A stretch of DNA of 64,000 bases from Escherichia coli. Its GTDB lineage: Bacteria > Pseudomonadota > Gammaproteobacteria > Enterobacterales > Enterobacteriaceae. Of the stretch, positions 20,134-24,406 are shown in pieces. Position numbers and translations under genes: made by a program. The stretch is taken from assembly GCF_003334255.1 (NCBI RefSeq), contig NZ_QOWU01000011.1; one strand, given 5' to 3'. The notes beneath the pieces were generated by a model, which saw only the letters and a program-made list of their open reading frames with translations, had not been told where the DNA came from and made no database searches. Numbering within the stretch: the first letter of the stretch is position 1; each line of letters begins with the position of its first letter.

Positions 20134-21231
20134 TCAGCCGCTAAAGACGTTACCTGCGCCCGGGGCGGTTTTCAGCACCCAGACACGTCCATAGTGGTTG
20201 TACCAACCTGCGCGGTGTCCGGCTTCCGGCCCGATCCCTTGATAGATATCGAAGTGTTGGCCTTTGATTGCACCACCGACATCCAGCGCCACCATCAGAC
20301 GCAGTTCGTACTGACCATTAAATTTGCCGTTATTATCCAGCAACGGCACTTCTGCCAGCAAGGTAGTACCTGGCGGAATAATGGAACGATCAGAGGCAAC
20401 TGACGCGCGACCAACCAGCGGCACCGCACTTGCCCCTTTCACCGGAGCAAAAGATTGCGGTTTAAAGAAGACGAAAGACGGGTTCTGTTCCAGCAGCTCG
20501 CGAACCTCGGCTTCACTGTGTGTTTCGCCCCAGTGACGAATCGCCTGCATCGACATATCTTCTTTTTTCACTTCGCCACGGTCGATCAGCACCTTACCAA
20601 TGCTGCGATAGGCATGACCGTTTTTCCCTGCATAGCTGAAAAAGTTAAGCGGACTGCCATCACCAAAGTCGATATACCCACTACCCTGCACATCCATAAT
20701 GAAGTTATCCATCAGGGAGTTACTGTAAGCGAGAATATATTTATCACTCAATGCCCCCGCGTAGATCTCCGCACGAGACGGCAGACGACCACGTTTTGGC
20801 GGCATACGGTAAATAGGATACTGGAACTCGCCCTGGCGGGTATGGCGCGCCTGAATTACCGGCGTGTAATAACCGGTAAACTGCACGTTACCATAGTTGT
20901 CGGCACCTTCCATCTGCCAGGCATCAATGCCGAACTGGCGCATATTGCGGGTATCACCGCCTGCGCGCAGCCACTCTTGCACCGCGTTATAAACATTACT
21001 CTGGTTGCCATACAGACGCGGTGACGAATTACGGATATGGTTAATTTGCTCGGCAAAATCACCGGCGTTAATCGGCGCGCCAACGGCATCTGGCTGGTTC
21101 ACCAGAGAGAAAGGCTGGGTAAATTTCCCGTCTTTATATTGCTGTCCGCGATCGGTTGGTTTGGAAGAGCAGGCGGCAAGCATTGCCACAACCGTGCCCA
21201 TAAGAAGGTACTTTACCCAACGTCCTTTCAT
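20134..21231 (-). CDS. mltA: Membrane-bound lytic murein transglycosylase A (lipoprotein)
   Basis: 365-aa ORF from ATG 21231 (MKGRWVKYLL... with lipobox LAAC). The 508-aa track ORF is an upstream extension through the tRNA promoter. Confidence 0.9.
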   Translation of the reverse strand: MKGRWVKYLLMGTVVAMLAACSSKPTDRGQQYKDGKFTQPFSLVNQPDAVGAPINAGDFAEQINHIRNSSPRLYGNQSNVYNAVQEWLRAGGDTRNMRQFGIDAWQMEGADNYGNVQFTGYYTPVIQARHTRQGEFQYPIYRMPPKRGRLPSRAEIYAGALSDKYILAYSNSLMDNFIMDVQGSGYIDFGDGSPLNFFSYAGKNGHAYRSIGKVLIDRGEVKKEDMSMQAIRHWGETHSEAEVRELLEQNPSFVFFKPQSFAPVKGASAVPLVGRASVASDRSIIPPGTTLLAEVPLLDNNGKFNGQYELRLMVALDVGGAIKGQHFDIYQGIGPEAGHRAGWYNHYGRVWVLKTAPGAGNVFSG

Positions 21232-21398
21232 TGTTCTCTTCTTCAGGTTAAAAAATAAGGCGCAACGAAGATAACAAACCGCCGCGTTTAATGAAATGAG
21301 CAGCCTCTCCCTGACGCAAATTTTGCACAAAAAATAGGCTTTAGTGATTTGTTTTTGTTCAAAATCATGCCAAATCCGTGATCGGGGTAAAAAAAAGG

Positions 21399-21426
21399 TT
21401 GCATGAAAACGCGAGCGGAGTATAGT
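21399..21426 (+). promoter_or_regulatory. Sigma-70 promoter for the tRNA-fMet gene
   Basis: TTGCAT (21399-21404), 16-bp spacer, TATAGT (21421-21426); tRNA begins 14 nt downstream. Confidence 0.5.
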
Positions 21427-21439
21427 GCGCATCCACGGA

Positions 21440-21516
<77 letters not shown>

Positions 21517-21523
21517 ATTATTG

Positions 21524-21547
21524 AACACCCTAACGGGTGTTTTTTTG
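21524..21547 (+). terminator. Intrinsic terminator of the tRNA transcript
   Basis: acaccc-taac-gggtgt hairpin followed by a T7 run (21541-21547). Confidence 0.7.
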
Positions 21548-21589
21548 TTTCTGGTCTCCCATAAAAAAGCGCCATTCAGCGCCTTTTTA

Positions 21590-22843
21590 TCATCCCCTTC
21601 TCGCCAGCGTCGCCCCATCGGCAAAATACGCTTTAATCCCCGCAAGAATAGACTCCGCAACTTCCTGCTGGAAAGTCGCCGTTTTCAGTTTACGCTCTTC
21701 CTCAACGTTACTGATAAACGCCGTTTCGACCAGAATGGAGGGAATATCTGGTGCCTTTAGTACGGCAAACCCGGCCTGTTCAACTTGATTTTTATGCAGC
21801 TTGTTGATTTTACCGAGCTTATTCAGTACCGCTTTACCAAACTTCAGGCTGTCGGCAATGGTCAGCGACTGTACCATATCGAACATGGTGTGGTCGACAT
21901 AGCGGTCACCGCTTTTGCTCACGCCACCAATCAAGTCCGAGGCGTTCTGGGTTTGTGCCAGATATTTTGCCGCAGTACTGGTTGCACCTTTGGTTGAGAG
22001 CGCAAACACAGAGGAACCGCTCGGCTGACGACTGGTAAAGGCGTCGGCATGGATAGAGACAAACAGGTCAGCACGCTGTTTCTGGGCTTTTGCTACGCGC
22101 ACTTGCAATGGAATGAAGATGTCTTCATTGCGCGTCATGTACACCTTCATATTGCCCTCTTTCTCGATCAGAGAGCGCAAACGGCGAGCTATTTGCAATA
22201 CCACATCTTTTTCGCGCGTTTTGTATTTCCCCACCGCACCGGAGTCTTCGCCACCGTGGCCAGGGTCAAGCATAATGACAATCGGACGATCGCGCCCTGC
22301 TTTACCCGGTTGTGGACCACTTTGCGCTGGCGGCACCTGCTTTTCGAGGTCGCCTTTGTTGTAATCCTCCAGCAGCGCCAGCAGCGGGTCCTGCATATCC
22401 TGTGCATTGGCCGGATAGAGGTCCATCACCAGACGCTCTTTAAACCCGGCGACCGGCGCAAGGGCAAACAGCTGCGGTTTTACGTTTTGCTTTAATTCAA
22501 AAACCATCCGTACGGTTTGCGGGTCAAATTGCCCGACGCGCGCCGACTTGATGAACGGGTCGTCTGCACGAATTTGTGCCGCCATCCCCTTGAGTACCGA
22601 GTTCAGGTTTACATCTTCGATATCCACCACCACGCGTTCAGGGTTACTCAACGCGAACTGCTTATATTTCAGCTGACGATTTGATTCCACCGTCACGCGG
22701 GTGTAGCTGGACGCAGGCCAGACGCGCACCGCCACGACCTGGCTGACCGCAGCCAGACTGACCTGACTTACGCTCAATAGCCACATGGCACCCGCGCCTT
22801 GCAGTAAACGACGACGGCTGATTGCAGTGTTGGATCCTGACAT
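21590..22843 (-). CDS. amiC: N-acetylmuramoyl-L-alanine amidase AmiC (Tat-exported)
   Basis: 417-aa ORF from ATG 22843 ([18 protein letters not shown]...) with twin-arginine signal; the 447-aa track ORF is an upstream extension. Confidence 0.9.
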
Positions 22844-23025
22844 GCCTCTCCCGAGCAAAAGAAATCTAAGCTGTGTAACAAGTAAACGACTAATTTGACC
22901 GGAAACTTTAGCGAAAGACGCATAATCTGTCATCTAATAAACGGTAAACATTCTTTTTATATTCACGGCATTACTGATAAAAAAGTCGCTCTCGCATAAA
23001 ATTTACACTTGCACCCTGCGAAAAA

Positions 23026-23064
23026 ACAGAATAAAAATACACTAATTTCGAATAATCATGCAAA
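23026..23064. promoter_or_regulatory. Pair of ARG-box-like sites (ArgR operators) just upstream of argA
   Basis: acAGAATaaaaATaCAct (23026-23043) and ttcGAATaatcATgCAaa (23047-23064), 18-bp elements 3 bp apart, as in known ARG-box pairs. Confidence 0.4.
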
Positions 23065-23074
23065 GAGGTGTGCC

Positions 23075-24406
23075 GTGGTAAAGGAACGTAAAACCGAGTT
23101 GGTCGAGGGATTCCGCCATTCGGTTCCCTATATCAATACCCACCGGGGAAAAACGTTTGTCATCATGCTCGGCGGTGAAGCCATTGAGCATGAGAATTTC
23201 TCCAGTATCGTTAATGATATCGGGTTGTTGCACAGCCTCGGCATCCGTCTGGTGGTGGTCTATGGCGCACGTCCGCAGATCGACGCAAATCTGGCTGCGC
23301 ATCACCACGAACCGCTGTATCACAAGAATATACGTGTGACCGACGCCAAAACACTGGAACTGGTGAAGCAGGCTGCGGGAACATTGCAACTGGATATTAC
23401 TGCTCGCCTGTCGATGAGTCTCAATAACACGCCGCTGCAGGGCGCGCATATCAACGTCGTCAGTGGCAATTTTATTATTGCCCAGCCGCTGGGCGTCGAT
23501 GACGGCGTGGATTACTGCCATAGCGGGCGTATCCGGCGGATTGATGAAGACGCGATCCATCGTCAACTGGACAGCGGTGCAATAGTGCTAATGGGGCCGG
23601 TCGCTGTTTCAGTCACTGGCGAGAGCTTTAACCTGACCTCGGAAGAGATTGCCACTCAACTGGCCATCAAACTGAAAGCTGAAAAGATGATTGGTTTTTG
23701 CTCTTCCCAGGGCGTCACTAATGACGACGGTGATATTGTCTCCGAACTTTTCCCTAACGAAGCGCAAGCGCGGGTAGAAGCCCAGGAAGAGAAAGGCGAT
23801 TACAACTCCGGTACGGTGCGCTTTTTGCGTGGCGCAGTGAAAGCCTGCCGCAGCGGCGTGCGTCGCTGTCATTTAATCAGTTATCAGGAAGATGGCGCGC
23901 TGTTGCAAGAGTTGTTCTCACGCGACGGTATCGGTACGCAGATTGTGATGGAAAGCGCCGAGCAGATTCGTCGCGCAACAATCAACGATATTGGCGGTAT
24001 TCTGGAGTTGATTCGCCCACTGGAGCAGCAAGGTATTCTGGTACGCCGTTCTCGCGAGCAGCTGGAGATGGAAATCGACAAATTCACCATTATTCAGCGC
24101 GATAACACGACTATTGCCTGCGCCGCGCTCTATCCGTTCCCGGAAGAGAAGATTGGGGAAATGGCCTGTGTGGCAGTTCACCCGGATTACCGCAGTTCAT
24201 CAAGGGGTGAAGTTCTGCTGGAACGCATTGCCGCTCAGGCGAAGCAGAGCGGCTTAAGCAAATTGTTTGTGCTGACCACGCGCAGTATTCACTGGTTCCA
24301 GGAACGTGGATTTACCCCAGTGGATATTGATTTACTGCCCGAGAGCAAAAAGCAGTTGTACAACTACCAGCGTAAATCCAAAGTGTTGATGGCGGATTTA
24401 GGGTAA
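23075..24406 (+). CDS. argA: N-acetylglutamate synthase
   Basis: 443-aa ORF from GTG 23075 ([10 protein letters not shown]...) behind AGAGG; recognised as ArgA. Confidence 0.9.

Follow-up and report, generated by a model that had tools for sequence, protein, structure and literature searches.

The window analyzed here, a stretch of 64,000 nucleotides of Escherichia coli DNA, contains the intergenic region between amiC, which lies on the minus strand, and argA, which lies on the plus strand. The argA product, N-acetylglutamate synthase, catalyzes the first committed step of arginine synthesis. Directly upstream of argA, two elements resembling the ARG box occupy a total of 39 bp (23026–23064) and lie over a conserved AAAAAT positioned 18 bp after a conserved TTGC. 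The features of the region are collected in Table 1.

The first-pass annotation had described two 18-bp ARG-box-like elements with two to three mismatches each, separated by exactly 3 bp and ending about 10 bp before the argA GTG, and our measurements agree with this description. Box 1 and box 2 each differ from the consensus tnTGAATwwwwATTCAnw at three positions, two of which fall in the upper-case core (positions 3 and 14); the spacer reads AAT, and the gap between the end of box 2 (23064) and the GTG (23075) is exactly 10 bp. The last two bases of box 2 overlap the argA Shine-Dalgarno sequence.

The locus is the same as that of the E. coli K-12 argA operator. A 1,001-bp segment of MG1655 around the argA start (2,948,700–2,949,700) is present identically in the window, with no difference at the operator, and the local conversion (MG1655 coordinate = window coordinate + 2,926,167) places the boxes at MG1655 2,949,193–2,949,231. 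The RefSeq argA start, MG1655 2,949,242, corresponds to window position 23075, where the protein begins MVKERK from a GTG; this codon is also described as the native argA start (PMC8674398). More broadly, the 901 bp around the boxes had a match of at least 95% identity in every one of the 5,426 complete E. coli genomes, with the flanking genes annotated as amiC and argA. A 465-aa open reading frame beginning at TTG 23009 was discarded as an ORF-calling artefact, the RefSeq start being 23075. The stretch upstream of 23075 is non-coding, since the gap between box 2 and the start codon differs among species, from about 10 to 14 nt and not in threes.

Table 1. Elements of the argA upstream region and their window coordinates
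Feature	Position	Strand	Sequence and remarks
A/T tract	22998..23005	+	AAAATTTA; just upstream of the -35; conserved
Predicted argA -35 hexamer	23009..23014	+	TTGCAC; TTGC (23009-23012) invariant in 81 sequences
Alternative argA -10 hexamer	23032-23037	+	TAAAAA; 17-bp spacer to the -35
Predicted argA -10 hexamer	23033..23038	+	AAAAAT; inside box 1; invariant in 81 sequences
ARG box 1	23026-23043	.	ACAGAATAAAAATACACT; overlaps the predicted -10 hexamer
3-bp spacer	23044-23046	.	AAT; box centres 21 bp apart; read from sequence
ARG box 2	23047-23064	.	TTCGAATAATCATGCAAA; predicted to cover +1 to about +20
argA Shine-Dalgarno sequence	23063..23068	+	AAGAGG; read from sequence
argA CDS	23075..24406	+	N-acetylglutamate synthase; GTG start; RefSeq

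Two further observations were made in the surroundings. Between mltA and amiC the window holds one initiator tRNA-Met gene (21440–21516, within the region 21150–21600), where MG1655 has three tandem copies, metZ, metW, and metV, and the offset between window and MG1655 coordinates shifts by 220 bp across the tRNA site. The source is thus K-12-like around argA with a collapsed tRNA array, reflecting either a copy-number polymorphism or an assembly collapse. In addition, a second conserved island lies on the amiC side of the intergenic region (22905–22951). It contains a promoter-like site on the minus strand, with ATGACA (22933..22928) and TAAAGT (22910..22905) separated by 17 bp, and neither hexamer shows more than slight variation across the 81 aligned sequences described below; the amiC promoter probably lies at this site (22905–22933). 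A conserved block immediately upstream of it, AAACGGTAAACAT (22939–22951), contains GTAAA and might be the site of a regulator, conceivably a CpxR-type box.

Box pairing measured against chance

With up to three mismatches allowed, the 64-kb window contained 14 single-box strand-matches, compared with 9.8 ± 3.5 expected. A lone box of such quality is no more than chance would provide, and a consensus scan by itself is uninformative. The signal resides instead in the pairing of the boxes. The argA pair was the only one in the 64 kb with a centre-to-centre distance of 20–22 bp, and none of 300 dinucleotide-preserving shuffles of the window contained such a pair.

Scoring was then based on a symmetrised matrix constructed from 18 boxes of nine other ArgR-controlled MG1655 promoters (argI, argF, argE/CBH, argD, argG, argR, carA, artJ, and artP), with argA left out. 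In this matrix scan, which the first-pass annotation had proposed as a check, box 1 ranked 1st (15.0 bits) and box 2 ranked 5th (13.0 bits) of the 63,983 18-mers in the window. Taken together, the pair reached 27.9 bits, against 17.2 bits for the runner-up pair, and this value falls inside the range of the training operators (26.6–40.2 bits), near its low end. The largest pair score in each of 200 first-order Markov simulations of 64 kb averaged 11.4 ± 3.0 bits, and the highest of these maxima was 21.8 bits.

Resemblance to the ARG box could in principle be a by-product of AT-rich sequence in a block that is conserved only as the -10 region, transcription start, leader, and ribosome-binding region of argA. 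Such an account would agree with the chance-level frequency of single boxes at up to three mismatches and with the weak pair scores that AT-rich intergenic DNA yields elsewhere, for example, at 43066; nevertheless, the argA pair score exceeds all 200 null maxima.

The runner-up pair just mentioned (43066–43103) has a 2-bp spacer and lies in the AT-rich rppH-ygdT intergenic region. Its 17.2 bits fall within the null maxima, and we rejected it as an operator, as it is probably a chance match. A lone box of 8.1 bits at 22950 was likewise set aside, as it is not conserved. No third ARG box was found in helical register with the argA pair (positions 22984, 23005, 23068, and 23089), where every score was below -19 bits.

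Conservation of the boxes and of the predicted argA promoter

A scan of one genome per species recovered 80 argA loci from Enterobacteriaceae and Erwinia-like genera, with 89–99% protein identity, which together with the window gave 81 sequences. In all 80 species the homologous pair outscored every other pair in the 260 bp upstream of argA, reaching 22.7–33.0 bits. The mean majority-base frequency in the alignment was 0.90 for each box, compared with 0.68 for the upstream intergenic DNA, and reached 0.91 in the first argA codons. The spacer was 3 bp long in 81 of 81 sequences while its sequence drifted (aat, aaa, tat, att, ttt, and tta), a combination that argues against conservation as a core promoter alone.

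The distribution of conserved positions within the boxes followed the motif. Twelve of the 18 positions of box 1 are invariant in the 81 sequences, including the core GAATAAAAATACA, and so are ten of the 18 positions of box 2 (3–8, 12–13, and 15–16). Positions 4, 7, 12, 15, and 16 show no variation in either box; the most variable positions in both, 2 and 17, are also the least informative in the matrix. Positions that carry more information in the argA-free matrix tended to be more conserved (Spearman rho 0.52, p 0.001), and among the registers scanned across 22990–23074 the proposed one gave the best correlation, the next best being 0.34. As read from the alignment, this conservation pattern is the one expected for ArgR recognition.

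A putative promoter could be assigned from the same alignment. Of the 81 sequences, 79 have TTGC[A/G][C/T] as the -35 hexamer and two have TTGCAA. The spacing from the TTGC hexamer to AAAAAT is 18 bp in 79 of 81, across a spacer whose sequence is freely variable. Because these conserved hexamers hold a fixed distance across a variable spacer, they likely represent a real -35/-10 pair, and the argA hexamers in Table 1 were assigned on this basis. With only 3 of 6 -35 consensus bases matched by TTGCAC, a simple promoter scan missed the site. The sigma-70 scan site CTGATA-17-TAAAAT on the plus strand (22974–23002) was rejected, as neither its -35 hexamer nor its spacing is conserved.

Either choice of -10 hexamer predicts a transcription start near 23044–23046 and a leader of approximately 30 nt. 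No argA transcription-start entry was found in the available portions of the supplements of PMC4782308 and PMC3415461. Relative to the predicted +1, box 1 would extend from roughly -19 to -2 and box 2 from roughly +3 to +20. Upstream of the -35, the majority-base frequency is 0.8–0.9 across 22999–23003 between poorly conserved flanks, and the A/T tract at this location is possibly UP-element-like. The start-codon column of the alignment contains GTG in 59 and ATG in 19 of the 81 sequences, and the other species retain GAGG or AGGG ahead of argA.

The only plausible conserved -10 hexamer sits within box 1, which speaks for the account based on core-promoter conservation. Conservation of AAAAAT is inseparable from that of box 1, and the -10 element, instead of ArgR, could account for a share of the box 1 invariance. 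Box 2, however, has no role as a promoter hexamer, yet its invariance falls exactly on the ArgR-informative positions, and the proposed register gives the best fit between conservation and matrix. Occupancy upstream of argA moreover vanishes upon deletion of argR (PMC8282354). Considering these points, we regard conservation of the block as a core promoter alone as very improbable.

Since the leader is short, at about 30 nt, the boxes lie close to the GTG, and this closeness implies no separate translational mechanism. A structured 5' UTR element extending from box 2 through the Shine-Dalgarno sequence might still be imagined to control argA translation, for instance in the stimulation of ArgA synthesis that polyamines are reported to exert: box 2 lies in the predicted 5' UTR and touches the Shine-Dalgarno sequence, and ArgA has been cited as belonging to the polyamine modulon and its weak GTG start has been noted (PMC8674398). 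Folding of the leader and early coding RNA (23045–23110) revealed no structure beyond chance among 200 shuffles, as its -7.6 kcal/mol corresponds to z = +1.57 and 195 of the 200 shuffles folded at least as well. The conserved positions are those of a palindromic DNA motif and form no paired RNA columns, and the same pattern appears in box 1, which is mostly upstream of +1. Translational control by such an element is therefore scarcely credible here.

Departures from the consensus and natural variants

Both boxes depart from the consensus in a conserved manner. At position 3 (window 23028 and 23049), none of the 81 sequences carries the consensus T in either box; box 1 has A or C there in 80 of 81, and box 2 has C without exception. 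Box 1 also has A at position 14 throughout. Taken singly, the boxes match the consensus weakly, and the matrix score of the argA pair is the second lowest. The in vivo repressor constant of argA is nonetheless the second tightest of eight arg promoters (PMC3658269, Table 1), and the published repression is tighter than the matrix score would predict.

These data raise the idea that selection holds the argA boxes in a non-consensus state, either through a sub-optimal affinity combined with their position over the -10 and +1 or through a second role of the invariant C. Under tuned affinity, the strength of repression would come from the position over the -10 and +1, whereas the alternative role of the invariant C in box 2 could lie in the initial transcribed sequence. 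We put this explanation forward tentatively and consider it unlikely on present evidence.

Another possibility is that a second regulator, for instance a global binder of AT-rich DNA such as Lrp, shares the ArgR operator or competes for it. Competitive repression by ArgR and Lrp is reported for another ARG-box promoter, artPIQM (PMC6640053), and the conserved departure at position 3 of both boxes, together with the invariant C of box 2, hints at an extra constraint. The same departures are equally explicable by affinity tuning or by constraints on the initial transcribed sequence, though, and the alignment of 81 sequences contained no further conserved motif between the -35 and box 1. The literature that we found names no second factor at argA, and joint control of this kind appears improbable.

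Variation of the operator within E. coli was also recorded. A common O157-type allele carries three polymorphisms: one affects position 17 of box 1, one the spacer, and one position 11 of box 2, the last of which changes C to A and gives a better match to the ARG box. The weakest operator of the 81 sequences (22.7 bits) belongs to E. coli SCPM-O-B-8794, a divergent representative of the E. coli lineage, with a C at position 10 of box 2 and a -35 that reads TTGCGC. In a single genome of the 5,426 (Z0117EC0098, NZ_CP098195.1), the argA operator is rearranged and longer by a net 8 bp, with an apparent 10-bp duplication of TTCGAATAAT and single-base deletions in the A-run of box 1 and in the spacer. 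As judged from its sequence, this change would disrupt box 1 and the spacing; it reflects either natural mutation of the operator or an error in long-read assembly.

Relation to other ArgR operators and repression of argA

Canonical ArgR operators consist of two 18-bp imperfect palindromes with a 2–3 bp spacer, 39 bp in total (PMC6245113, PMC4381063), and the argA pair, with its 3-bp spacer, 21 bp between centres, and 39-bp length, conforms to this spacing. The operators of carAB P2, argECBH, argI, and argF share with argA the two 18-bp palindromes and the 3-bp spacer, and they overlap their promoters, as is predicted for argA (PMC6245113). Resemblance extends to the sequences of some boxes: box 2 of argECBH has a 15-mer, GAATAAAAATACACT, in common with argA box 1, and carA box 1 (TGTGAATTAATATGCAAA) resembles argA box 2. 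Like the argA operator, that of carA P2 stops 10 bp short of the start codon.

Differences were found in strength and position. The carAB P2, argECBH, argI, and argF operators score 32.8–40.2 bits, compared with the weaker 27.9 bits of argA, and in contrast to them both argA boxes are without the consensus T at position 3. The boxes of carAB P2 partly overlap the -35 (PMC6245113), while those of argA appear to lie over the -10 and +1. The autoregulatory operator of argR likewise has paired ARG boxes and a similar score (26.6 bits); its spacer is 2 bp rather than 3 bp, and its in vivo repressor dissociation constant is approximately 25-fold weaker than that of argA (PMC3658269, Table 1).

Published experiments on argA itself are consistent with binding of ArgR at this site. 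The known ArgR sites upstream of argA showed strong protein occupancy by IPOD-HR, which weakened in arginine-poor conditions and was gone on deletion of argR (PMC8282354). The activity of an argA promoter-GFP fusion responds to ArgR and arginine (PMC3658269), PargA-gfp is given as the reporter plasmid of a study that measured an ArgR-regulated promoter (PMC6345581), and argA transcription is repressed by ArgR (PMC8674398, PMC1413537). The arrangement canonical for the ArgR hexamer, as proposed in the first-pass annotation, thus finds support in the argA-free matrix, the 80-species footprinting, the overlap with the predicted promoter, and the literature. In view of this evidence, we conclude that 23026–23064 is the ArgR operator of the E. 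coli argA promoter, a reading to which we assign a probability of about 95%. The placement of the footprint at exactly these coordinates rests on the sequence evidence together with published occupancy of lower resolution. The argA operator is already known, and the pair is not a new member or variant. Classical ARG-box compilations and regulatory databases include the ArgR sites of argA, and the published compilations presumably give exactly these two 18-mers.

The mechanism by which this operator would act can be taken from the literature, where it was worked out at other arg operators. There, one ArgR hexamer carrying arginine binds both boxes cooperatively on one face of the helix and bends the DNA (PMC6245113, PMC4381063), and ArgR and RNA polymerase bind arg promoters in a mutually exclusive manner at overlapping sites (PMC3658269, PMC1413537). 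By analogy, a single arginine-loaded hexamer would bind cooperatively to both argA boxes, whose centres are 21 bp or two helical turns apart, a distance that puts the two on a single face of the DNA. Box 1 would then cover the -10 region, and box 2 the transcription start and about the first 20 transcribed bases. ArgR and RNA polymerase would exclude each other at argA, which would be repressed when arginine is plentiful.

As a discovery, the present finding carries little weight, since repression of argA by ArgR through paired ARG boxes is textbook regulation. It illustrates that combining a leave-one-out matrix with phylogenetic footprinting suffices to tell a real operator from the many chance matches to single boxes, and that a real operator was recognizable to a first-stage reader from the raw sequence. 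Tuned affinity of the argA boxes, if true, would be a refinement of the known ArgR system and not a new one.
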